Notes under the pieces: generated by a model
What the model was told of the DNA's origin: nothing
The model's input: only the letters and a program-made list of their open reading frames with translations
Database searches by the model: none
In this document: piece by piece, positions 45,795-60,985 of the stretch
Position numbering within the stretch: the first letter of the stretch is position 1
How the letters are laid out: each line of letters opens with the position of its first letter
Program-made: the position numbers and the translations under genes
Assembly (NCBI GenBank): GCA_019636675.1
Contig: JAHBXC010000001.1
Location: forward strand, 1,235,007-1,299,006
Direction of reading: 5' to 3'
Origin: Phycisphaeraceae bacterium
GTDB lineage: Bacteria > Planctomycetota > Phycisphaerae > Phycisphaerales > UBA1924
Length of the DNA: 64,000 nt

Positions 45795-45999
45795 CGCGCG
45801 CCGGGCGTGGTGGCGGAAAGCCGCCGGGATAACACTCTTCTGACGAAGGACTTCGCGTGCATATGCGCTTGCGTCCGACAGCGCCTGCGCCAGAGTGTGG
45901 TGTTGTTGCCCTCGGGCTCGGGGCCGGGTCGCCGGACCGTCCGAGGGGTCGATCCCTCTCCGGCCAGCGCCGGGCGTGACACAGGACTTTCAGGAGCAG

Positions 46000-46749
46000 A
46001 TGCCGATGCGCACCACCACCCTCGCCCTCGCGGGCGTCATTGTCGCTTCGATCTCTGGGCTCGCCAGCGCGGGCTCGGTCGTCGCCAACCCCGTGCTCGA
46101 CTCGGGCTCGTTCGCCGGGACGACCGTCGCGAACGCGCGGTTCCGACTCGACGCGACCAACTGGGACATGCGTCTGGCGAACACCTCGAGCCCGGCTGTC
46201 GGCGATGCGACGAAGAACATCTCGAATAATGTCGCACAGCTGGCCGGGTCGTGGGCGTTTCAGCTCTCGTTCGCGTCGGCGACCGGCGACATGACCTTCA
46301 CGCTGACGGATATGGATCAGGCGAGCAACCTCGGCTCGCACTCGCTGACGATCAACCGCGCGGGCGAGTCGTTCAATCAGATCCAGGTCGCCGCGGTCGC
46401 CGAGACGCTGAAGGGATCGCACCTGACCTTCGGCGCGTTCTCGTTCTCGGGCGCCACGCTGGTGGACGGCGCGTCGATCGATCTGGACCTCGTCGCCGGC
46501 AGCGGCGATTCGTTCAAGAACGCGTACCTCGTCGCGAGCGGCGTGGACCTGGCGGCGATCGACTGGGCGCTGTCTGGCACGCTCGACATCGCGAAGGGCA
46601 CGAGCACCTCGCAGGAGCGCCCGGCGTTCAACATCTATGTGCAGCGGAGCGACGCGGTCGTGGCGCCCGTGATCCCGACGCCGCTCGGTGGCGCGATGGG
46701 GCTCGCGGGGCTGTGCGCGATCGGGGCTCGGCGTCGTCGCCAGGGGTGA
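46000..46749 (+). CDS. PEP-CTERM-anchored secreted protein (paralogue D1)
   Basis: The SD CAGGAG precedes ATG 46000. A signal peptide is present. The tail is VIPTPLGGAMGLAGLCAIGARRRRQG. It aligns with 47069..47782 (VVANP.L.SGSF.GTTVANARFR.DATNWD...). Confidence 0.85.
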   Translation: MPMRTTTLALAGVIVASISGLASAGSVVANPVLDSGSFAGTTVANARFRLDATNWDMRLANTSSPAVGDATKNISNNVAQLAGSWAFQLSFASATGDMTFTLTDMDQASNLGSHSLTINRAGESFNQIQVAAVAETLKGSHLTFGAFSFSGATLVDGASIDLDLVAGSGDSFKNAYLVASGVDLAAIDWALSGTLDIAKGTSTSQERPAFNIYVQRSDAVVAPVIPTPLGGAMGLAGLCAIGARRRRQG

Positions 46750-46833: not shown

Positions 46834-47068
46834 ATATTCCACTCCGGTTCTGCGCGCATTTCGCCCATTCTCCCGGAAGATGAACGAACCGTGAAGACCG
46901 TGCGCTCGGAGGCCGCAAACCCAGCGTTTTCATAGGTTTTCGTGAGTTGAATCGGCTCGGCGCTTCGGTACTGTCAGCATTGCTTTCCGGCGTGTCGCCG
47001 GGGCATGCGGCTGCGTCGTCATCGCGAATCGACGGGCCGAGCGTCCTTTGTGTATTGGAGAGAGACTC

Positions 47069-47782
47069 GTGAAGAACTTCACCTTTGCTGTTCTTGCCGT
47101 CGCGGCCGTTGCCGCGACCGCCGGGACCGCGACGGCGGCGAATGTCGTCGCCAACCCGACCCTGCAGTCCGGATCGTTCAGCGGCACAACCGTCGCGAAC
47201 GCGCGTTTCCGGACCGACGCCACCAACTGGGATATCGGCATCGGGCCCAACAGCAGCCCCCCGACCGGCTGGGTCACCAAGAACATCGCCAACGGCCAGG
47301 GCGCGTTCACCGGCGACTGGAGCTTTGTGCTCAGCCACAGCGCCGGGAGCGACACCCTGACGCTCTCGGTGTCTCACCTGTCCGGCTCGCTGGGCACGCA
47401 CTCCGTGACCTTCAACAATTTCGACACGTCCTTCAACCAGATCCAGCTGCAGAGCCAGTCCGACGCCGGCGGCGCGGTCAGCTTCAGCTCGTTCTCGTTC
47501 ACCGGCCTCGATGTCGCCAATGCCGGCAGCATCAACATCGACAACTCCGGCGGGCAGGGCCTGGCGTACCTCGTCTCCACCGGCGTCGACCTCGTGTCGT
47601 TCGACTGGACGATCGGTGGCTCGCTGTCGTGGCTCGACCAGGCCGCAGGCGAGCGTCCGGTGTTCAACATCCGCCTCCAGCAGTCCGACGCGGTCGCGGC
47701 GCCCGTCATCCCGACGCCGCTCGCCGGCGGCCTGGGCCTGGCGGGCATGGGCTTGATCGTCGCCCGTCGTCGCCGCGCCTGA
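47069..47782 (+). CDS. PEP-CTERM-anchored secreted protein (paralogue D2)
   Basis: GTG 47069 is preceded by GGAGAGAG. The signal is VKNFTFAVLAVAAVAATAGTATA. The tail is VIPTPLAGGLGLAGMGLIVARRRRA. Confidence 0.82.
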   Translation: MKNFTFAVLAVAAVAATAGTATAANVVANPTLQSGSFSGTTVANARFRTDATNWDIGIGPNSSPPTGWVTKNIANGQGAFTGDWSFVLSHSAGSDTLTLSVSHLSGSLGTHSVTFNNFDTSFNQIQLQSQSDAGGAVSFSSFSFTGLDVANAGSINIDNSGGQGLAYLVSTGVDLVSFDWTIGGSLSWLDQAAGERPVFNIRLQQSDAVAAPVIPTPLAGGLGLAGMGLIVARRRRA

Positions 47783-47883: not shown

Positions 47884-48651
47884 TCACGCGTTCCGGCGGG
47901 CGATCGACCGGGCGAGTTCCCGGACCTCGCGCAGCGCCGCGAGGTGGCTGGGGGACAGCGCGCGTGCGCCGGTTCGGGCGCTCCGGGCCGGGGCGTCGTC
48001 GCCCAGCCCTGCGCCCTGGAGTGCGCGGACCTTGAGCATGATGAGTTCGCGGATCTCCTGCGCGTTGTCGACGCCCTCGATGAGCCCGTGGTGCGAGCCG
48101 AGCGATCCGGCGGTGGCCGGGTGCCCTGACGCGCCGCCGCCCCCTGCGGTCTGAATGGTCACGTTGGCGACGCCGAAGTAGCGCTGGAGCGGGCCCTGGC
48201 GGACCTCGACGTTCTGGACGTTGTCGAACGTGAGGGTCTTTTCCTGGATGACGAGCACGCCGCGTCGGATGCGCACGCTGCGATCGCTCATGACGTACCA
48301 GGTGGTGTCGTAGCGCAGGTGGAGCATGACGTACGCGATGATATCGGGGATGATCATCAGCGCGAGCCACGGGACGAGCAGCCACATCGCGAGCGTGGGC
48401 TCGTTCGCGAAGACGATGATCCATCCGACGAGAAGGAAGAGATCGACGAGCGTCGCGATGAGCCAGAACTCGAACTTGCGCAGTCGGAGCCAGTTGGGCG
48501 AGGGCCGGAACGCGCGGACGGCGTCGCCCGAGCCGGCCGGCAGGCGTGGCGGCGCGTCGGGGACGGAGAGCCAGTTCGTCAGCACGCCCCAGACACCTCG
48601 ATAGACCCACTCGGCGGCGCGGTCGGGCATGTGTTCACGCGGCGCGTTCAT
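47884..48651 (-). CDS. Bacterial PH-domain (bPH_2/DUF304) membrane protein, YdbT-like
   Basis: Two or three TM helices (FWLIATLVDLFLLVGWIIVF, MWLLVPWLALMIIPDIIAYV) are followed by a PH-like module YVMSDRSVRIRRGVLVIQEKTLTFDNVQNVEVRQGPLQRYFGVANVTIQTAG. Confidence 0.65.
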   Translation of the reverse strand: MNAPREHMPDRAAEWVYRGVWGVLTNWLSVPDAPPRLPAGSGDAVRAFRPSPNWLRLRKFEFWLIATLVDLFLLVGWIIVFANEPTLAMWLLVPWLALMIIPDIIAYVMLHLRYDTTWYVMSDRSVRIRRGVLVIQEKTLTFDNVQNVEVRQGPLQRYFGVANVTIQTAGGGGASGHPATAGSLGSHHGLIEGVDNAQEIRELIMLKVRALQGAGLGDDAPARSARTGARALSPSHLAALREVRELARSIARRNA

Positions 48652-49160
48652 GGGCGTCCCCCGTGTTGCGCGGCGAGGACTCGGAGCGCATCGCGGATGT
48701 CGTGGAGTGTTTCAAGGAGCTCGTCGTGCTCGACGGGGGCTTCGGGCGCGTCTGTGTCGCCGGGCTGGCCCTTGGCGCCGCGCATGCGCTGGTAGAGGAA
48801 ATCGCGGAGCTTCTCGGGTTCGAGTATGCCGATGATGGTCATCTCGGCGGCGGCGCTGCCGCTGGCGGTCTGGACGGCGACATTGGCGAGGCCGAGCCAT
48901 CGCTGGATGAGGCCGCGCGTGACGTGGATGTCCTGGATGCGCCGGTAGGTGAGGTTGATCTCGCGCTTCCAGAGGAGGCCCCAGCCCATCCGGACGCCCT
49001 CGTCGTCGAAGGAGTACCAGAGGGTGCGGTACTTGATCCACTGGGGGATGAAGGCGAAGGGGAAGAAGACGAGCGCGAAAAGCGAGCTGATGAAGTAGTA
49101 CTGCAGCAGGCGCGGGTCTGGCCTGGTGAGCGTGCGCGGGTCGAAGGCGGGGTTCGTCAT
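48648..49160 (-). CDS. Bacterial PH-domain (bPH_2/DUF304) membrane protein, YdbS-like
   Basis: The start is ATG 49160 (MTNPAFD...). A TM hairpin is followed by YSFDDEGVRMGWGLLWKREINLTYRRIQDIHVTRGLIQRWLGLANVAVQTAS. It has an ATGA overlap with the downstream YdbT-like gene. Confidence 0.65.
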   Translation of the reverse strand: MTNPAFDPRTLTRPDPRLLQYYFISSLFALVFFPFAFIPQWIKYRTLWYSFDDEGVRMGWGLLWKREINLTYRRIQDIHVTRGLIQRWLGLANVAVQTASGSAAAEMTIIGILEPEKLRDFLYQRMRGAKGQPGDTDAPEAPVEHDELLETLHDIRDALRVLAAQHGGRP

Positions 49161-49227
49161 GACGACAGCATACTTGGGGAGCGTGGCGGTGCGCTTTCGA
49201 GCGTTCGCGGGCCCTGCGCAACGACGA

Positions 49228-49255
49228 GCGGGCGGGGCGCTTCCGCCCCGCCCGC
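49228..49255. terminator. Perfect 12-bp GC hairpin separating the secreted-protein genes from the PH-domain pair
   Basis: The stem is gcgggcggggcg / cgccccgcccgc, with loop cttc. There is no clear U-tract. Confidence 0.45.
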
Positions 49256-49297
49256 CGGCGTGTGTCCTGATTCGGTTGCTGCCTGCTGCGGCGTCGT

Positions 49298-49987
49298 TTA
49301 CGGGGCGAAGGTGGGGCACTCGAGCCCGAACCAGGAGAGGATCTGGTTGAGGTCGGTGAAGTTCACCTCGCCGTCGGCGTTGGCGTCGCCCGGACAGCCG
49401 TCGGGCATGGAGGGGATGCGCAGACCCGTGACGACGGCGGAATCGCCGGTGTTGAGCCGGATGATCGCGTGGCCGCCGACCTCGTGGAACGCGGCGTTGG
49501 TGAGTTTGTGAATGGTGCGCGTCGTCATGCCTGCCTGGACGGGGGCGGCGTCGAAAAGGAAGCGGATGCTGTCCCCGCCGCTCATGCGGATGACGGTGCT
49601 CGGCCCGACCTGGCCGGGTCGGTCGAGGCGGTAGTCGACATTCGTGGAGTACCCGATGTAATCGAGGAACTCGACCTCGACGATGGTCTGGCCCGCCGCC
49701 GCCGAGGTGTTGATGATGCGCGTCTCGAAGATGAGCACATCGAGGATGTTGCTGCGCGAAACGACCTGCTGCAGCGTGCCGTCGAAGATCGGGTTGCCGG
49801 CCTGGTTGTAGACCCGGAAGGGGAAGTTCTGGGTCGCGACGACGATCGTCGCGTCGAGGTAGGGCTCGGCGGCGACGGTGGTGCCGTTGAGGGGGGCCTG
49901 CGCCGAGTGGAGCGGGATCGCTGCGGCGGGCAGCGCGCCCAGGGTGGTCATGACGGCGGCGGCGAGCGTGAATCGTGTGGTGTTCAT
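49298..49987 (-). CDS. Small secreted protein, tandem paralogue 1, with a Cys-bracketed single dockerin-like repeat at the C-terminus
   Basis: The SD AGGAGAAAAG precedes ATG 49987. The signal is MNTTRFTLAAAVMTTLGALPAAA. The C-terminus is CPGDANADGEVNFTDLNQILSWFGLEC. Confidence 0.85.
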   Translation of the reverse strand: MNTTRFTLAAAVMTTLGALPAAAIPLHSAQAPLNGTTVAAEPYLDATIVVATQNFPFRVYNQAGNPIFDGTLQQVVSRSNILDVLIFETRIINTSAAAGQTIVEVEFLDYIGYSTNVDYRLDRPGQVGPSTVIRMSGGDSIRFLFDAAPVQAGMTTRTIHKLTNAAFHEVGGHAIIRLNTGDSAVVTGLRIPSMPDGCPGDANADGEVNFTDLNQILSWFGLECPTFAP

Positions 49988-50034
49988 GTGGCTTTTCTCC
50001 TGGCTCATGGCCCGCGGTGCGTTGATGGGAGCGC

Positions 50035-50712
50035 TCAATTGCAGGCCTGTCCGAAGCTGGAGAGCGCGGCGTTCAGGTCGGCGAAGTTGATGATGCCGTC
50101 GCGGTTCAGATCGCGTGCGCAGTGCGGCAGATACTGCGGTGAGCGCAGGCCTGAGATCGTCACGCTCTCGCCGGTGCTCACGTGGATCGTGGCGGTCCCC
50201 TCGATGAGCGTCTGCTTGGCGTTGGTGAGCAGGTAGAGCGGGAAGTGGTCGACGCCCTGGGGGAGGGAGTTGTCGAAGAAGGTGAAGGTGACGGAGTCGC
50301 CGTTGCCCGAGCGGATCGCGGCCTCGGGACCCGTGACGCCCGGCAGGTCGGTGCGGAAGTCCACGTTGGTCACGAACTGCGAGTAGCCGGAGACATCGAG
50401 CCGGGTGACCTTCGCGGAACTGGAGACGATGTCGCGGATGCGATAGTCCATGACGAGCATGCGGAAGGTCGCGCTCATGTACACGCGCTGCTCGAGCCTG
50501 CCGGTGAGGACGACGGCGTTGGACGCGTCGCGGACCGCGAAATTCCACTGGAAGGCGCTGACGACTCCCTGCGCGTCGAGCCACGGCTCCTGCGCGAGCG
50601 TGACGCCCGCGAGGGCGATCTGCTCGCCGTCGCGGAGTGGGGCGGCGAGCGCACCCGACGCGCCGAGGAGCGTGGCGGCGGATGCGGCGAGGATGGATGT
50701 TGCGTGTCGCAT
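50035..50712 (-). CDS. Small secreted protein, tandem paralogue 2, with a Cys-bracketed single dockerin-like repeat
   Basis: The signal is MRHATSILAASAATLLGASGALA. The C-terminus is CARDLNRDGIINFADLNAALSSFGQAC. Confidence 0.85.
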   Translation of the reverse strand: MRHATSILAASAATLLGASGALAAPLRDGEQIALAGVTLAQEPWLDAQGVVSAFQWNFAVRDASNAVVLTGRLEQRVYMSATFRMLVMDYRIRDIVSSSAKVTRLDVSGYSQFVTNVDFRTDLPGVTGPEAAIRSGNGDSVTFTFFDNSLPQGVDHFPLYLLTNAKQTLIEGTATIHVSTGESVTISGLRSPQYLPHCARDLNRDGIINFADLNAALSSFGQACN

Positions 50713-50905
50713 GTGGTTCCGTCTCCGAGCGCGATCTTCGGTCGCCTGTGGTTATGGGCGGCTGTGCCCGAGGCTTGTGTGCGCGATGACTCTCGCACGC
50801 TCAGAGGATTGTCGTGACGCTCCCGGCGCTTTCAGTTCGGGACAAAATAAAACGGCCCCGGCGCCGAGTTGGGCGAGGGGGCCGGGCGGTGTCCGAGGGA
50901 TTCGT

Positions 50906-51610
50906 TCAGGGAACCGACGGGGGCGGGCAGGTCGTGCCGAAGGCGGAGAGGACCTCGTTGAGGTCGGAGAAGTTGACGACCCCGTCACGGTTCACATCGC
51001 CCCGACAACTCGGGCAGGGCCGGCCCGGGGCGAACGCCGGCAGCACGACGAAGTCGCCTGTGTTGAGGATGATCGCGACCGATCCGTGGTCGTTGTACTC
51101 GGCGGCGTCGGTGAAGACATAGAAGAATCTGGACGCGACGCCGGAGAAGAGCAGCGGGTTGGCAAAGTCGAACTCGATCGTGCCTCCGGTGTACGCGCGG
51201 CTGGCGCGGCTCGGGCCTGTTGTGCCGAGTCCGTCGAGACGCCAGTTCACGTTGGCGCCCGAGCCGGAGTGCTCCGAGATCTCGACGCGAGCGACACTGC
51301 CGTTGAGGCCCGGCTGCGTGTTGAAGATGCGGTGAGAGAAGACGAGCGTGTTGGTGACGACAGAGCGTTCGACGCTGAGGGAGATCTGGCCCTGGAACAG
51401 CAGCGGCGCGCCGCCCGGGCCGGTGATCGAGAAGGATTGGACCGATGTCGCGACGTTGACCGTCGCGAGCGCCGGTTCCGCGGCGACGGTGGTGCCTGCC
51501 AGGGGTACGTTCGTCGAGCCGGGCGGCAGCGGGACCGCGCCGGCGAGCGACGTGAGAGAGACAGCGGCGACGAATGCGGATCCGGCGCGCACCATACGGG
51601 TTGCGTTCAC
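50906..51610 (-). CDS. Small secreted protein, tandem paralogue 3, with a Cys-bracketed single dockerin-like repeat
   Basis: The SD AGGAGG lies 5 nt before GTG 51610; an alternative start is ATG 51595. The signal is ...MVRAGSAFVAAVSLTSLAGA. The C-terminus is CRGDVNRDGVVNFSDLNEVLSAFGTTC. Confidence 0.82.
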   Translation of the reverse strand: MNATRMVRAGSAFVAAVSLTSLAGAVPLPPGSTNVPLAGTTVAAEPALATVNVATSVQSFSITGPGGAPLLFQGQISLSVERSVVTNTLVFSHRIFNTQPGLNGSVARVEISEHSGSGANVNWRLDGLGTTGPSRASRAYTGGTIEFDFANPLLFSGVASRFFYVFTDAAEYNDHGSVAIILNTGDFVVLPAFAPGRPCPSCRGDVNRDGVVNFSDLNEVLSAFGTTCPPPSVP

Positions 51611-51877
51611 GATGACCTCCTGCCCCGGGACGGTTGCCGACGGCGTCGGACTCGCCGATCCCGTCGACACACGGGAGCGCCGTCTGCGTCTTCACTCTAC
51701 TGCTCGGCCAGAGCGGCCGCAAGCAAGCGTCGCGTCTCTCGGTCCTTTGCCGCTGCTGGGGCGGGACTTCTTCCTTTGGCTTCGTCACCTTTCGGGCATA
51801 AGGGCGCGACGCTGGGGCTGGAGGTCCGAGCGCGCGGGATGTGGGTCGCGAATCCCTACAGACTGCGAACTGTTTAC

Positions 51878-53212
51878 TTAGGCCGTGTCGGCGGCGCCCA
51901 CGATGATCGCGCTGTTCTTGGCCCCGAAGGCGAGGCAGTTGACCAGGACCGCCCGCGCATCTGAAGGGCGGGACGCGAGGGGCGTGTAGTCGAGGTCGCA
52001 GGCCGGGTCGGGCTCGAAGAGGTTGATCGTCGGCGGCGCGAAGGGGCCGGCGTCGGGGTCGTCGAGACTCGCGAGCGCGCCGATGGACGCGACGACGCCG
52101 GCGGCGCCGCTGGCGCCCTGTGGGTGTCCGATCATGGACTTCACGCTCGACGCGGCGACGGCGCGCGCGATCGACTCGCCGAGCGCGAGTTTGAGTGCGA
52201 GGGTTTCGAGCTCGTCGTTGAGGCGCGTGCCGGTGCCGTGGCACTGGACGGCGCCGATGTCGTGCGGCGTGAGGCGCGCGTCGTCGAGGGCGAGCGAGAT
52301 CGCGCGCACGCACTCGGCCATGTCGGGTGCAGGGCGCACCCGGTGGTGCGCGTCACAGGTCGCGGCGTAGCCGAGGATGCGCGCGATCGGTGGCGCCTCG
52401 CGCCGGCGCGCGTGGTGTTCGCGCTCGAGGACGAGCGCCCAGGCGCCCTCGCCCAGGAGAAAGCCGTCGCGTGTCGCGTCGAACGGGCGAGACGCGGACG
52501 AGGGTCGGGCGCGCGGATCGTCGCTCGATTCGTCCCAGGGCGTCGACGAGATCACGCCCAGGAGCTCCATCGAGAGCAGGACCTCGTCGCGGACATGCGC
52601 GTCGGCGCCGACGACCAGCACGGCGTCGGGCGCGCCCGGGCTGTCGGATCGCAGCGACTGGGTGGCGAGGCCGATCGCGTCGCTGGAGCTTGCGCAGCCG
52701 GTGGAAACACAGAGCGAGGGGCCGCGCAGGCCGAGTCGGATGGAGAGCTCTCCGGCGAGATTGCCGTGGGTGGCGTTGGTGATGCTCCACAGCGAGGGTC
52801 GCTCGCCTTCGTGGGCGCGCCGGGCCTGATCGAGGGTGAAGTCGATCCCCCCGCCGCCGGTGCCGAGGACGAGCCCGACGCGGCGCGCGCGGTCGCGCAG
52901 GGCCGGGTCGGATTCGGCCTGGGTGAAGTCGGGCAGGCGCGCGTGCGCGAGGGCTTCGCGCGCGGCGGCGAGGGCCATGGGGATGAGTCTGGGCAGTCGT
53001 CGGAGGTCGGCTTCGGGCAGGACGCTGGAGGGGACGAAGTCGCGGCAGACGGCGGCGGCGCGGGTCCGCACGCGCGGGTCGTTGGGGTGGTAGGCCGAGA
53101 CGCCGCTGACGCCGGCGCGCAGCGATCGTGTGAACGCGGGTGCGCCGACGCCGATGGGGCTGACGGCGCCGAGTCCTGTCACGACGATGCCTTCGCGTGC
53201 CGGGGGATTCAC
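51878..53212 (-). CDS. Beta-ketoacyl-ACP synthase, KAS I/II (FabF-like), stand-alone
   Basis: The N-terminus is VVTGLGAVSPIG. The active-site Cys is in VSTGCASSSDAIG, with the His residues in QCHGTGTRLND and KSMIGHPQGASG (Cys-His-His triad). No ACP or other fab genes are adjacent. Confidence 0.88.
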   Translation of the reverse strand: MNPPAREGIVVTGLGAVSPIGVGAPAFTRSLRAGVSGVSAYHPNDPRVRTRAAAVCRDFVPSSVLPEADLRRLPRLIPMALAAAREALAHARLPDFTQAESDPALRDRARRVGLVLGTGGGGIDFTLDQARRAHEGERPSLWSITNATHGNLAGELSIRLGLRGPSLCVSTGCASSSDAIGLATQSLRSDSPGAPDAVLVVGADAHVRDEVLLSMELLGVISSTPWDESSDDPRARPSSASRPFDATRDGFLLGEGAWALVLEREHHARRREAPPIARILGYAATCDAHHRVRPAPDMAECVRAISLALDDARLTPHDIGAVQCHGTGTRLNDELETLALKLALGESIARAVAASSVKSMIGHPQGASGAAGVVASIGALASLDDPDAGPFAPPTINLFEPDPACDLDYTPLASRPSDARAVLVNCLAFGAKNSAIIVGAADTA

Positions 53213-53368
53213 TCACTGCCTTTCGATCGCGCCCCCGGGGTGGACTCCGTTCGAGTGTACCAGAGGCGAGAGAGGCGAAAAAGAACGGCGCCCGGCCAGT
53301 CATGGGCCGGGCGCCGTCACGGATAATGCGCAGGGGGATCTCCTGCGCGGGTCAAAGGGACAGTGGGA

Positions 53369-54967
53369 TCAGTTGCAGTCGGTGCCGAATTCGGAGAGGA
53401 CGCCGTTGAGGTCGGAGAAGTTCACGACGCCGTCGTTGTTGACGTCGGCCGGGTTGCCGGGGCCGGTCTGGCCGAAGGCGCTGAGGACGACGTTGAGGTC
53501 GGAGAAGTTCACGACGTTGTCGCCGTTGGTGTCGGCGGTGAGGGTGCAGGAAGCCGGGCCGACGATCGCGGCGGCGATGGTGGCCGGGCCGCCGCTGCGG
53601 TACATGGTGATGGTTGCCTCGCTCTGCTCGGGGGCGGAGGACGAGGTGAACCAGAAGGAGTAGGTGGTGCCCCAGCGGAGCGCGTTGGCGTTGGGGTTCT
53701 GCGCGAAGCTGTCGGTCATCCAGGACTGGACGCCGCCGCTGTTGCTGGAAGCCCAGGGGGTGTTGGAGAAGGGAGCGGCGCCGTTGTGGCCGTCGTTGGA
53801 GTGATAGAAGGGCGAGTGGAAGCCGACGTTGGTGAGGGTGGAGTTGCCGACGGGGACGCTGAACCCGCGACCGGAGAGGTGCGAGTCGAGGTTGTGGACG
53901 GCGTACTCGTAGCGCCAGGTGCCGTCGCCGTTGTCGTAGGCGCGAGAGGCGACGATGACGCGACCGTCGCCGGGGACGTCGATGTAGTCGAGCTGGACGT
54001 TGGGATCGACGTCCTGCCAGCCGACGATCGCGGGCTTGGTGCGCTGGGTCGCGCTCTGGAAGGAGGGCTGGAGAGACGTGTTGAACGCCACGCGACGGTA
54101 CGACGCGTTGTTCCAGCCGTTGCCGGCGGCGGCGTCGTCGGGGGTCACGTAGTGACCCTCGGCGAAGTAGATGGCGCCGGTGTTCTGCGCGGGGGTGACA
54201 TCGGTGGTGAGGACCTGGAGGCGGCGGCCGATGGTGCCGGGGTAGGAGGCGTTGAAGAAGGGATAGTTGAAGAAGCCGGTGGCGGCGTTGACCTGCCAGC
54301 GCGGGCCGAGGTTGCTCTGGCTCGCGTTGAGAGAGGTGGAGTAGGGGTCGGAGCAGAAGATGCCGAGGCGGCTGCCGGTGCCCGAGCTCTGGCAGGGGTT
54401 CTGCGCGGTGGCGCAGAGGTTCTGCTGCAGGGCGGTGAAGCCGTGCTTGAGGTGGGACATGCCGATCATCATGAAGCGGCCGTCCTTGAGGCGGTAGAGG
54501 TTCTGCCCGATGACGGGGTGCTGGTTGTTGCTGGAGATCCAGAGCAGCTGGGCGTCGCCGATGTTGCACGAGGTGGTGCCGATGGCGTAGGCGGTGATGC
54601 CGCTAACGGTGCCGTAGAGGCCCATGCCGTTGAGGTCGCCGACGATGACGTCGGGGCCGATGCCGCCGCGGGGGCAGTCGGCGCACGCGCCGCTGGTGGC
54701 GCCTGCGGCGTAGTCGTGCATCACGTCGATCTCGATGCCGTTGGCGGCGAGCTGATCCATGATGGCGTCGGCCTCGGCAGACTGGCCCATGTCACGGAGC
54801 ATCTGGGCGAGGCGCGCCATGGTGGTGGCGTCGTTGGGGTCCTCTTTGAGGGCGGACTGGATGGCGCCCAGCCCGAGCTCGTTGACGACGGGCGTCTCGG
54901 CGGCGAGCGCAGCGGAGGGGACGGCCACAGCAAGGCCGACGACAGCGAGGAACGGATATCGCATCAT
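53369..54967 (-). CDS. Large secreted Cys-rich protein of unrecognised family (paralogue 1) with a C-terminal double dockerin-like module
   Basis: The signal is MMRYPFLAVVGLAVAVPSAALA. A helical TPR-like N-region follows. Conserved motifs are CADCP, TSCNIG, HLKHGFTALQQ, and IFCSDPY. The C-terminus is CTLTADTNGDNVVNFSDLNVVLSAFGQTGPGNPADVNNDGVVNFSDLNGVLSEFGTDCN. Confidence 0.85.
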   Translation of the reverse strand: MMRYPFLAVVGLAVAVPSAALAAETPVVNELGLGAIQSALKEDPNDATTMARLAQMLRDMGQSAEADAIMDQLAANGIEIDVMHDYAAGATSGACADCPRGGIGPDVIVGDLNGMGLYGTVSGITAYAIGTTSCNIGDAQLLWISSNNQHPVIGQNLYRLKDGRFMMIGMSHLKHGFTALQQNLCATAQNPCQSSGTGSRLGIFCSDPYSTSLNASQSNLGPRWQVNAATGFFNYPFFNASYPGTIGRRLQVLTTDVTPAQNTGAIYFAEGHYVTPDDAAAGNGWNNASYRRVAFNTSLQPSFQSATQRTKPAIVGWQDVDPNVQLDYIDVPGDGRVIVASRAYDNGDGTWRYEYAVHNLDSHLSGRGFSVPVGNSTLTNVGFHSPFYHSNDGHNGAAPFSNTPWASSNSGGVQSWMTDSFAQNPNANALRWGTTYSFWFTSSSAPEQSEATITMYRSGGPATIAAAIVGPASCTLTADTNGDNVVNFSDLNVVLSAFGQTGPGNPADVNNDGVVNFSDLNGVLSEFGTDCN

Positions 54968-55077
54968 TCACACTCCCTTTTCGATCCCACGGACAGTGGA
55001 CAGTGACAGCACAAACAGGAATGCCCCAGGGGACCGCGAAGTCCGCTGGGGCGGTGTTCATATCGCCGAACGGGGCG

Positions 55078-56679
55078 TTAGTTGCAGTCGATGCCGAACT
55101 CGGAGAGGACGGCGTTGAGGTCGGAGAAGTTGACGGCGCCGTCGTTGTTGACGTCGGCCGGGTTGCCGGGGCCGGTCTGGCCGAAGGCGCTGAGGACGAC
55201 GTTGAGGTCGGAGAAGTTCACGACGTTGTCGCCGTTGGTGTCGGCGGTGAGGGTGCAGGTGGCGGCGGGAGCGACGACGCGGGCGGTGATGCTGCCGCCG
55301 TTCTTAAAGAAGCCGATGGTGGCGTCGGTCTCCTCGGGGCCGGCGTTGGCGGTGAAGCGGAAGTTGTAGAGGGTGCCCCAGCGGAGGGCGAAGGAGTTGG
55401 GGCCGACGTCGACGAGCGACCAGACCATGTCGGAGCCGCTGACCTGCGAGGTCCAGGGGGTCATGTCGTAGGTGACGCCGCTGATGCCGTCGCCGGAGTG
55501 GTAGCGAACGCCCTTGAAGCCCATGCCGGTGATGTTGGCGGAGCCGACGGGGACGCGGAAGTTACGACCGGAGGCGTCGTTGTTGAGGTTGTACACGGCG
55601 TACTCGTAGTCCCAGGTGCCGTCGCCGTTGTCGTAGGCGCGGGAGGCGACATAGAGACGACCGTCGGTCGCGGGCTCGACGATGTCGAGGAGGACCTCGT
55701 TATCGATGGCCTTCCAGGCCTCGATGGCGGGCTTGGTGCGGACCGTGGCGCCCTGGGTGGCGAACTGCGCGCCGATGGGGCGGATCTCGCGGTAGGAGGC
55801 GTTGTTGCCGCCGTTGCCGGCCTGCGAGTCGTCGAGGGCGATGTAGTGGCCCTCGGCGAAGAAGCGGTTGGCGGGGTAGGGGTAGTTCGTCACGTCGGTG
55901 ACGGCGACGTTGATGCGGCGACCGAGGGTGGCGTCGGAGTACGAGCCGCCCTGGAACGGATACGCGAACTGGCCGGTGAAGGGGTTGACCTGCCAGCGGG
56001 GCCCGAGGCGGGACTGCTGGCCGTTGAGGGACGCGTCGTAGGGGTCGGAGCAGAAGATGCCGAGGGTCTGCATGCAGCCGCCGCCAGTGGGCTGGCAGGG
56101 GTTGCCGGGGGTCTGGCAGATGCCCTGCTGGAGGGCGCAGAAGCCGTGCTTGAGGTGGCCGATGCCGATCTGCTCGAAGCGACGCCCGTCGTAGCGGTAC
56201 ATGTTCTGCGCGATGACGGGGTGCTGGTTGTTGTTCTGGAACCAGTTGAGGATCTGGGTTCCGACGTTGCAGGAGGTGGTGGCGATGGAGTAGGCGCGGA
56301 AGCCGTTGGACTCGCCGAAGTAGCCGACGCCGGGGAGGTCGCCGACGATGACGTCAGCGCCGGTGTTGCCGAGCTCGCAGCCGACGCAATCGCCGCGGGC
56401 GATCTTGGCGCCGGGATAGAGCATGTCTTCGATGTTGGGGTCGAGTTCGATCGCGTCCATGATCATGGCGCGTCCCTCGGCCTCCTGCCCGAGCTCGATG
56501 AGCATGGACGCGAGACGAAGGCGGGTGGACGCGTCGCCCTGACCGGCATCGACGATGTCGGCGAGCGAACGGATGATGTCGGCCTGGGTGACGGCGGGGG
56601 TGGCGGGAACAACTTCGGCGACTGCGCCAGCCGACAGGATCGCGGCGGCGGACAGACCGAACACAAATCGTCTTTTCAT
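55078..56679 (-). CDS. Large secreted Cys-rich protein of unrecognised family (paralogue 2) with a C-terminal double dockerin-like module
   Basis: The start is ATG 56679 (MKRRFVFGLSAAAILSAGAVA). It is collinear with 53369..54967 (CVGCE, TSCNVG, HLKHGFCALQQ, IFCSDPY). The C-terminal module is near-identical. Confidence 0.85.
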   Translation of the reverse strand: MKRRFVFGLSAAAILSAGAVAEVVPATPAVTQADIIRSLADIVDAGQGDASTRLRLASMLIELGQEAEGRAMIMDAIELDPNIEDMLYPGAKIARGDCVGCELGNTGADVIVGDLPGVGYFGESNGFRAYSIATTSCNVGTQILNWFQNNNQHPVIAQNMYRYDGRRFEQIGIGHLKHGFCALQQGICQTPGNPCQPTGGGCMQTLGIFCSDPYDASLNGQQSRLGPRWQVNPFTGQFAYPFQGGSYSDATLGRRINVAVTDVTNYPYPANRFFAEGHYIALDDSQAGNGGNNASYREIRPIGAQFATQGATVRTKPAIEAWKAIDNEVLLDIVEPATDGRLYVASRAYDNGDGTWDYEYAVYNLNNDASGRNFRVPVGSANITGMGFKGVRYHSGDGISGVTYDMTPWTSQVSGSDMVWSLVDVGPNSFALRWGTLYNFRFTANAGPEETDATIGFFKNGGSITARVVAPAATCTLTADTNGDNVVNFSDLNVVLSAFGQTGPGNPADVNNDGAVNFSDLNAVLSEFGIDCN

Positions 56680-59893: not shown

Positions 59894-60985
59894 GTGATGC
59901 GCCCAACGCCGCGTCGCGGCATCCCGGGATGTGTGCGCAGCGTTCCTCGCGATCGCGCGTTTACGCTTGTCGAGCTGCTGGTGGTCGTGGCGATCATCGG
60001 GGCCCTGACGGGGCTGCTGATCCCTGCGCTGGGCTCGATGCGCGCGATGTCCCGTCGGGCGGCGTGCGCGACGAACCTGCGCGAACTGCACAGCGCGACC
60101 ATGGCGTGGGCCGCCAGCAACAAGGACCACCTGCCCGGGATCAACACCACCGGCCAGCCCTATCTGCGCCTGCAGGACTCGCTGCGCCTCACCGGCAACA
60201 CCTCCCCCACCACACCGACCTCGGTGTTCGACTGGATCAGCCCGACGATGGGCGACGCGATGGGCTTCTCCCCCAACCGCGCCGAGCGCACGGCGCAGAT
60301 CTTCGATCGCCTGGCGTGCCCCGACTCCCGGCGCATGAACAACGCGCTCTACGGGCCCACGAGCGTGCCGGACTTCGCGGATTTCGATCGCATCCACCGC
60401 TCGGGCCCGGGGTTCAGGCAGATCTCGTACTTGTCGCCGGCGTCGTTCCATCTGATGGGCAAGCGCGACACGGGCAGCCCGTGGACCTCGCCCACCGGTG
60501 GCTGGCACTACCCCTATCGCGGGCCGGTCGAGACGCCCTCTGCGTACAAGCCCCGGACCTACGCCGTCGGCGCGCCGGCGGCGAAGATCTGGGTCGCCGA
60601 CGGGACACGCTATGTCGCGTCGCCCACGGTTCTGGACTTCGATGTGAACCCGCGACCCCACTTCTACGGCTCGTTCACCTCGAGCGGGCCGATCTATGTC
60701 GGGTCGACGGCGTACGGGCAGGACCCCAGCCAGGTCGAGTTCCCGGGCGGGCAGACCGCGGAGCGCGTGCTGCCTCGCAGCGTCTACCCGCACAACGCGC
60801 GCCGGTCGTACCGGCACTCGGGGTCGATCCAGGCGATGTACTTCGACGGCCACATGGACACACTCACCGAGAAGCAGTCTCGCACCGACGCGCGCCCGTG
60901 GTACCCCAAAGGCAGCCGCTTCACGGGCATCCGCGCGACGAGCGACTCGCTCAACTTCCACACCGTCGGTGAAGAACTGAACTGA
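59894..60985 (+). CDS. Prepilin-type N-terminal cleavage/methylation-domain protein, DUF1559-like
   Basis: The leader is RDRAFTLVELLVVVAIIGALTGLLIPAL. The C-terminal YFDGHMDTL tail resembles that of the other two members in the window. Confidence 0.8.
   Translation: MMRPTPRRGIPGCVRSVPRDRAFTLVELLVVVAIIGALTGLLIPALGSMRAMSRRAACATNLRELHSATMAWAASNKDHLPGINTTGQPYLRLQDSLRLTGNTSPTTPTSVFDWISPTMGDAMGFSPNRAERTAQIFDRLACPDSRRMNNALYGPTSVPDFADFDRIHRSGPGFRQISYLSPASFHLMGKRDTGSPWTSPTGGWHYPYRGPVETPSAYKPRTYAVGAPAAKIWVADGTRYVASPTVLDFDVNPRPHFYGSFTSSGPIYVGSTAYGQDPSQVEFPGGQTAERVLPRSVYPHNARRSYRHSGSIQAMYFDGHMDTLTEKQSRTDARPWYPKGSRFTGIRATSDSLNFHTVGEELN

Follow-up and report, generated by a model that had tools for sequence, protein, structure and literature searches.

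Eight co-directional genes with dockerin-tagged secreted products in a Phycisphaeraceae genome: a likely juxtaposition of independent gene sets

Gene content of the run

According to our analysis, positions 47884 to 56679 of the window (the whole 64,000-nucleotide stretch of DNA analyzed here, C1:1235007-1299006 of the 3.31-Mb genome G000 of an uncultured Phycisphaeraceae bacterium, with 69% G+C and 98.6% completeness) hold an 8.8-kb co-directional run of eight confirmed open reading frames (ORFs), all on the minus strand. They encode two large secreted proteins (L1 and L2), a FabF-like beta-ketoacyl-acyl carrier protein (ACP) synthase (KAS), three small secreted proteins (A1, A2, and A3), and two membrane proteins with a bacterial PH domain (PH1 and PH2). 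When the ORFs were rechecked, the arrangement given in the original prediction, namely, eight minus-strand genes with gaps of 47 to 267 nucleotides (nt), proved exact: from L1 to PH1, the gaps measure 110, 156, 267, 193, 47, and 137 nt, while the stop codon of PH1 and the ATG of PH2 overlap by 4 nt. By name, homologues belong to metagenome-assembled genomes of Phycisphaerales or Planctomycetota.

L1 (55078-56679, minus strand) encodes 533 amino acids (aa), with a signal peptide, short TPR-like helices, a beta-rich core of about 370 aa, and a C-terminal two-loop dockerin. L2 (53369-54967, minus strand; 532 aa) has the same architecture and is 56% identical to L1, so the two are paralogues as first described, but the label "Cys-rich" overstates their modest cysteine content (10 and 8 residues). 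KAS (51878-53212, minus strand) encodes 444 aa. A1 (50906-51610, minus strand; 234 aa) begins with a GTG start codon after AGGAGG and joins a beta-sandwich to a half-dockerin with a single loop and bracketing cysteines. A2 (50035-50712, minus strand) and A3 (49298-49987, minus strand) are half-dockerin paralogues of A1, to which they are 34% and 42% identical, respectively. The N-termini of all five exported proteins look like signal peptides when judged by eye and, with mutual identities of 34 to 42%, A1 to A3 are the three tandem small secreted paralogues originally proposed. PH1 (48648-49160, minus strand) encodes a 170-aa, YdbS-like membrane protein that has a single bPH_2 domain and whose start was picked by comparison with orthologues of 175 to 185 aa, and PH2 (47884-48651, minus strand) encodes a 255-aa membrane protein, also with one bPH_2 domain.

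Terminator-like structures are predicted within the run. The L2-KAS gap contains an intrinsic-terminator-like hairpin (53284-53318, minus strand) with a 14-bp stem, 12 pairs of which are GC, followed by a T-run; its fold has a z-score of -4.86, and none of 200 shuffled sequences folds as well. Directly 3' of A1 lies a GC-rich terminator-like hairpin followed by GUUUUAUUUUGU (50841-50884, minus strand), which was obtained by folding 50760-50905 of the minus strand and was unflagged by the consensus terminator scan. Stable hairpins that have no clear U-run occur both 3' of A3 (in the A3-PH1 gap) and 3' of PH2. A scan of the run for sigma-70 promoters found none.

The C-terminal dockerin tag

All five exported proteins terminate in a D-x-N-x-D-G-x-V-N-F-x-D-L-N...FG..C module. 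The module had been taken for the same calcium-loop tag throughout, and the motif is indeed shared, but L1 and L2 have two Ca loops, whereas A1 to A3 have one and thus carry a half-dockerin, in which one loop-helix stands between two cysteines. In L1, the module occupies residues 474 to 533 (55081-55260, minus strand), where two Ca-loop/helix repeats are bracketed by Cys474 and Cys532. Both large proteins pass the 22.9-bit cut-off of Pfam Dockerin_1 (PF00404), with 25.1 bits for L1 and 23.0 bits for L2; A1 scores 14.7 bits, below the cut-off, and A2 and A3 have no match to this model. With the NCBIfam model NF041540, "GC-type dockerin domain-anchored protein" (cut-off, 29 bits), hmmscan gives 24.9 bits for L1 and 25.5 bits for L2, and a six-frame search of the genome gives 29.6 bits for L2 and 28.9 bits for L1 (29.2 with its neighbours); A1 to A3 are unmatched by NF041540. 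A profile of the L family searched against PDB sequences matches solved cellulosomal dockerins (2y3n_B; E, 2.4e-5), and its matches are confined to the dockerin and the TPR/EF-hand parts. In the AlphaFold model of L1, the dockerin has a predicted local distance difference test (pLDDT) score of 90 to 97 and shows the two expected helices. The tag is a true dockerin homologue with the EF-hand-like loop-helix fold of the dockerin type and, as the original prediction suggested, probably serves as a surface anchor; we infer that it would bind Ca and be closed by a disulfide.

This tag extends far beyond the run. NF041540 matches 69 places in this genome, L1 and L2 included, and a motif scan finds the tag in about 105 ORFs, 75 of them with bracketing cysteines and 95 with the tag within 35 aa of the stop codon; tag-bearing ORFs often lie in tandem runs. 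The matches to NF041540 reach more than 100 per genome in sister genera, and at least 20 other genomes are rich in tagged proteins, those of sister genera that lack the family of A1 to A3 among them, while zero matches were obtained in four other families of the order. The GC-type dockerin is the general, already catalogued tag of this lineage for exported proteins, borne by some 70 to 105 proteins of this genome. In the literature, we found no publication on the GC-type dockerin domain. The original prediction had seen no recognizable cohesin in the window, and the genome as a whole (98.6% complete) agrees: searched in six frames with Pfam Cohesin (PF00963), it yields 0 matches at E <= 0.01.

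At their 3' ends, where the dockerin is encoded, L2 (window 53371-53582) and L1 (55080-55291) share 91% DNA identity, compared with 71 to 76% wherever else the two genes align. This difference suggests that the tag of L1 and L2 was homogenized by gene conversion or a like process.

Protein families of the run and neighbouring genes

The L family has only two copies in this genome, but its homologues number more than 2,600 when clustered at 90%; clustered at 50% identity, it comprises 2,644 clusters at E <= 1e-3, 1,228 of them at E <= 1e-30. In Pfam and NCBIfam searches, all five secreted proteins showed nothing outside the tag except weak TPR matches, and in the L-family members no Pfam model covers the 370-aa core. 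In the model of L1 (pLDDT, 88), a short TPR-like helical region at the N-terminus precedes tandem beta-sandwiches, which are followed by the dockerin. Foldseek searches with this model returned matches of low template modeling (TM) score only, to MSCRAMM adhesins, AP mu-homology domains, and the lysyl oxidase-like LOXL2 (5ze3; E, 6.5e-4; probability, 1.0; TM, 0.21/0.25). An adhesin-like "dock, lock and latch" homology of L1 was set aside, the TM scores being at most 0.3.

We compared the L core with lysyl oxidase (LOX) by hhalign, using one LOX sequence (97% identical to database LOX) and an 18-sequence LOX profile. The segment K177-HGFC...GCSDPY214 aligns with the residues K320...Y355, which form lysine tyrosylquinone (LTQ) in LOX, and with the LOX cysteine framework. 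The alignment covers this Lys...Tyr cysteine-rich segment only, at E values of 0.007 to 0.026 and a probability of only 2 to 5%, and it scores 23 compared with 9.5 for a reversed-sequence control. Lys177 and Tyr214 are invariant in 40 diverse L-family members, and His153, His178, and His394 are nearly invariant in the family. The LOX family is defined by a His-rich "copper talon," WEWHSCHQHYH (PMC4448552). The equivalent strand of the L core reads N-x-H-P-V-I-A-Q-N and has a single His. PF01186, the lysyl oxidase model, is absent among the 25/53 families listed for 66 full-length L members at E <= 1 and does not match any of five isolated L cores at E <= 10. The L proteins are therefore not deemed members of the LOX family, since the copper-talon histidines are absent, but we retain the resemblance as a lead.

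Fusions of the core offer another view of its function. Among 48 long L-family members, the core is fused to a pyrroloquinoline quinone (PQQ)-dependent glucose/sorbosone dehydrogenase (GSDH) in nine and to cytochrome c in seven. These are the only catalytic or redox partners, the others being binding or anchor modules (HYR, GBD_T9SS_assoc, MAM, PKD, and CBM56). P0266, P0267, P0280, P0285, and P0303 are among the L1 homologues, from other organisms, that show such core fusions. A redox role of the L core is conceivable in light of the GSDH and cytochrome c fusions, but fusions to cytochrome c are common in planctomycetes. We regard it as rather unlikely that the core represents a large family, as yet without a model, of redox enzymes secreted by planctomycetes, perhaps oxidases that use a metal or quinone cofactor and are distant relatives of LOX; if it did, the L core of this genome would be displayed on the cell surface via the dockerin tag. 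As a very large secreted domain family for which Pfam has no model, the L core is a lead worth its own follow-up.

The family of the small proteins has seven paralogues in this genome, all within 42 kb, and only 17 to 20 homologues among 5.8 billion proteins; it is restricted to the genus, barring weak partial matches. A second trio lies outside the window at C1:1323645-1326126 (plus strand), 3' of GroES/GroEL, and has neither KAS nor PH genes as neighbours; the last protein of this trio shares with A1 56% identity and the tail ...CPSCRGDVN...CPPPSVP. The seventh gene, also outside the window, is solitary (C1:1311417-1312421, minus strand) and lies between ADSL and MgtE. The small protein was modelled (pLDDT, 82) as a beta-sandwich with about 10 strands; the half-dockerin tails reach pLDDT 61 to 73, and the model has no Foldseek match in the PDB at E < 1e-3. 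The remote homologue P0017 carries the exosortase signal PTPA-CTERM (36 bits; cut-off, 29) in place of the half-dockerin. Because one C-terminal module replaces the other, the module can be read as an exchangeable sorting device; the occurrence of either tail on this small family supports the view that such tails are interchangeable and that the tag behaves as a surface-sorting anchor.

KAS contains both ketoacyl-synthase domains, an intact Cys173/His325/His363 triad, and Lys358. It reaches 300.8 bits with the fabF model (TIGR03150), below the equivalog cut-off of 493.75, and no ACP or fab partner lies near it. Of the four KAS genes in this genome, one is the fabF of the canonical plsX-fabH-fabD-fabG-acpP-fabF cluster, found away from the run at C4:116578-123038. 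Two further paralogues (472 and 465 aa) stand in tandem at C3:196654-200070 (minus strand), with a 178-aa ORF between them and outside the fab cluster, and may be another accessory condensing-enzyme pair. Orthologues of the KAS of the run are patchily distributed, being present, with an identity of at least 59%, in 9 of the 24 genomes from the same family. The KAS of the run is an accessory FabF paralogue and probably an active elongating condensing enzyme.

The two membrane proteins clearly exceed the 22-bit cut-off of bPH_2 (PF03703), with 68.8 bits for PH1 and 60.4 bits for PH2. YdbT of Bacillus subtilis has three bPH_2 domains, while only one stretch of PH2 is matched. The earlier assignment to a YdbS/YdbT-like pair is thus upheld by the domain in both proteins and by the 4-nt overlap, but PH2 does not have the triple architecture of YdbT. 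The PH pair occurs in 16 of 41 relatives, many of which have no KAS or small family; it is widespread in the order and, judging from its family, probably envelope-related.

Two secreted paralogues at window positions 45994-46749 and 47048-47782 (both plus strand) are convergent with the run and have tails of the form ...VIPTPL-hydrophobic-RRRR, which by eye resemble exosortase signals of the PEP-CTERM or PTPA-CTERM type; NCBIfam gave no match to these two proteins at E <= 0.1. Two exosortase genes are located elsewhere in the genome, on C2. At 59894-60985 (plus strand), a protein has a prepilin-type N-terminal motif (FTLVELLVVVAIIGAL...), by eye of the kind that we take to be typical of the planctomycetal DUF1559 family. 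An Rfam search of the whole window detected no RNA family.

Gene order in relatives and comparison with known systems

When we inspected the relatives for the order of these genes, metagenome contig L003, with an A1 homologue 79% identical to ours, was found to have the same succession of KAS, three small genes, and the PH pair; synteny extends into the flanks, and this order therefore reflects shared ancestry. The near-complete congener G002 (two contigs) shows a different picture. It has ADSL-MgtE-KAS(-)-Lx4(-)-ClpC(+) at about 0.18 Mb, and GroES-GroEL, four small genes, a 202-aa gene on the opposite strand, the PH pair, and SRPBCC at about 1.20 Mb, so that the L array with KAS and the small array with the PH pair are about 1 Mb apart. 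Contig L013 carries a ClpC / Lx4-KAS / MgtE-ADSL block that has no small or PH genes, and ADSL and MgtE are directly adjacent both there and in G002. On the gene orders compared, the KAS/A1 junction is therefore a breakpoint of a rearrangement that only this species and its closest sister share. Conservation of the KAS-small-PH neighbourhood, for which a survey of relatives had been proposed, is limited: the order is kept in the closest sister lineage (L003), split in G002, and unlinked in other genera. Copies of the small family are seen at each rearrangement breakpoint of the region, and they may have mediated its rearrangements.

The KAS orthologue is found on a contig other than that of the L genes in G011, G012, and G023 (59 to 63% identity), and G014 has a KAS orthologue and no L gene. 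The solitary KAS of G014, a genome of another genus, diverges from BamD-LptE-FtsH, and downstream of it come LysR and a probable aconitase, the latter named by eye. Two secreted proteins adjoin it (L018, G014:C16, 8845-11740, minus strand); they end in a different Asp-rich C-terminal repeat (...DITGDGVVDNGDIGAFVECFLA...), possibly a further subtype of tag. We also examined two L homologues of greater divergence, and their gene contexts are unrelated. These data bear on the idea that the L array and KAS are functionally coupled, e.g., through a lipid product needed by the secreted L proteins. Same-strand L genes followed by KAS do occur in G000, G001, G002, G003, and L013; nevertheless, the coupling appears very unlikely to us, given the strong predicted terminator between L2 and KAS, the KAS orthologues unlinked to L genes in other genera, the thousands of L homologues in other contexts, and the cytoplasmic location of KAS as opposed to the export of the L proteins.

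A functional unit of the small paralogues and the PH pair, such as an envelope-stress or surface-layer module, would agree with the gene orders of L003, L006, and each of the four genomes of the genus, where the PH pair comes after the small array. We consider this unlikely too: an opposite-strand gene intervenes in G001/L006 and in G002, a 1.5-kb gap separates the two in G003, and a stable hairpin stands between A3 and PH1 here. Moreover, the PH pair is present in 12 further genomes that have no small family, while neither the second small trio nor the solitary copy of this genome has a PH neighbour.

The original prediction regarded the eight genes as one accessory module of the cell surface and the small proteins as possible cohesin-like receptors for the dockerins of the large ones. 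The short gaps between co-directional genes and the recurrence of the order on L003 speak for such a module, as does the size of the small bodies, which are beta-sandwiches of cohesin-like dimensions, and a genome with no canonical cohesin would need some other receptor. Yet A1 to A3 have no match to the Cohesin model PF00963, and in the Foldseek search cohesins rank only 37 and 44, with E values of 0.04 to 0.05 and TM scores of 0.22 and 0.32-0.33. Receptor and tag are also not co-distributed, the small family being confined to the genus while genera with about 100 or more tagged proteins per genome lack it. Together with the genome-wide occurrence of the tag, the distance between small and large genes in G002, and the predicted terminators inside the run, this makes the single module most improbable, and neither the module nor the cohesin-like nature of the small proteins is retained.

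Instead, we think that in this run four mutually independent gene sets quite likely came to lie side by side, an arrangement particular to this lineage, with a genome-wide tag as the only shared feature. The first set would be L1 and L2, two tandem members of a very large family of planctomycetal secreted proteins; the second KAS, a solitary accessory FabF-like gene; the third A1 to A3, a tandem trio from a genus-restricted beta-sandwich family; and the fourth PH1 and PH2, a translationally coupled bPH_2 membrane pair. A recent rearrangement at the species level would have joined them. Their sole common feature, found in five of the eight genes, would be the C-terminal GC-type dockerin, closed by a disulfide between its bracketing cysteines, binding Ca, and tethering the proteins to a non-cohesin partner on the cell envelope. 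The series of five tagged genes is accounted for by two arrays of tandem paralogues.

Some observations weigh against the juxtaposition of independent sets. The KAS, three small genes, and PH pair recur in order on L003 at about 79% protein identity, and this order has thus persisted for some time. The L-array/KAS and small-array/PH adjacencies are each kept in all four genomes of the genus, so that at the genus level linkage is indistinguishable from plain synteny. Finally, the division of the run into several transcription units, which we consider most likely, is read from predicted hairpins only.

Seen as such, the run itself is ordinary and its tag already catalogued. With the tag in 3 to 4% of the proteome and tandem arrays common, co-directional runs of tagged genes in Phycisphaerales are no proof of a functional island. 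The question that the run raises is genome-wide rather than local, namely, which partner is used by the 70 to 105 cysteine-clasped dockerins of a genome devoid of cohesins.

Several known systems resemble parts of the run. The KAS aligns over its full length with FabF/KAS II and has the two KAS domains and the Cys-His-His triad in common with it, but it falls below the TIGR03150 cut-off, lies outside the fab cluster, and is patchily distributed. Like PH1 and PH2, YdbS/YdbT pairs are encoded by adjacent overlapping genes, each product combining a membrane hairpin with a bacterial PH domain, although PH2 has one bPH_2 domain and not three. The L core weakly resembles lysyl oxidase in the Lys and Tyr at the LTQ positions and in the cysteine framework but differs in having neither the His-rich copper motif nor a PF01186 match.

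Concerning the tag, type I dockerins (PF00404) and NF041540 proteins have, like L1 and L2, a C-terminal pair of D-x-N-x-D-G loop-helix repeats; here, in contrast, the repeats are bracketed by two cysteines, the bodies are not those of carbohydrate-active enzymes (CAZymes), and the genome encodes no Pfam cohesin. The "group-2" dockerins of Ruminococcus flavefaciens are naturally truncated to a single Ca-coordinating loop, yet they are functional and bind the ScaE cohesin (PMC12270676). The tails of A1 to A3 likewise have one Ca loop but, unlike the group-2 dockerins, remain below the Pfam cut-off, are modelled with only moderate confidence, and occur in a genome with no Pfam cohesin. In the cohesin-dockerin model of the "Planctosome," proposed for Nemodlikiaceae of the Phycisphaerae, cohesin-bearing anchors and adaptors assemble dockerin-tagged proteins at the cell surface (PMC6461901). 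Such cohesin-bearing proteins are not detectable with PF00963 in the present genome, whereas the other side of the model, non-cellulosomal dockerin-tagged secreted proteins of Phycisphaerae, is what we find here.

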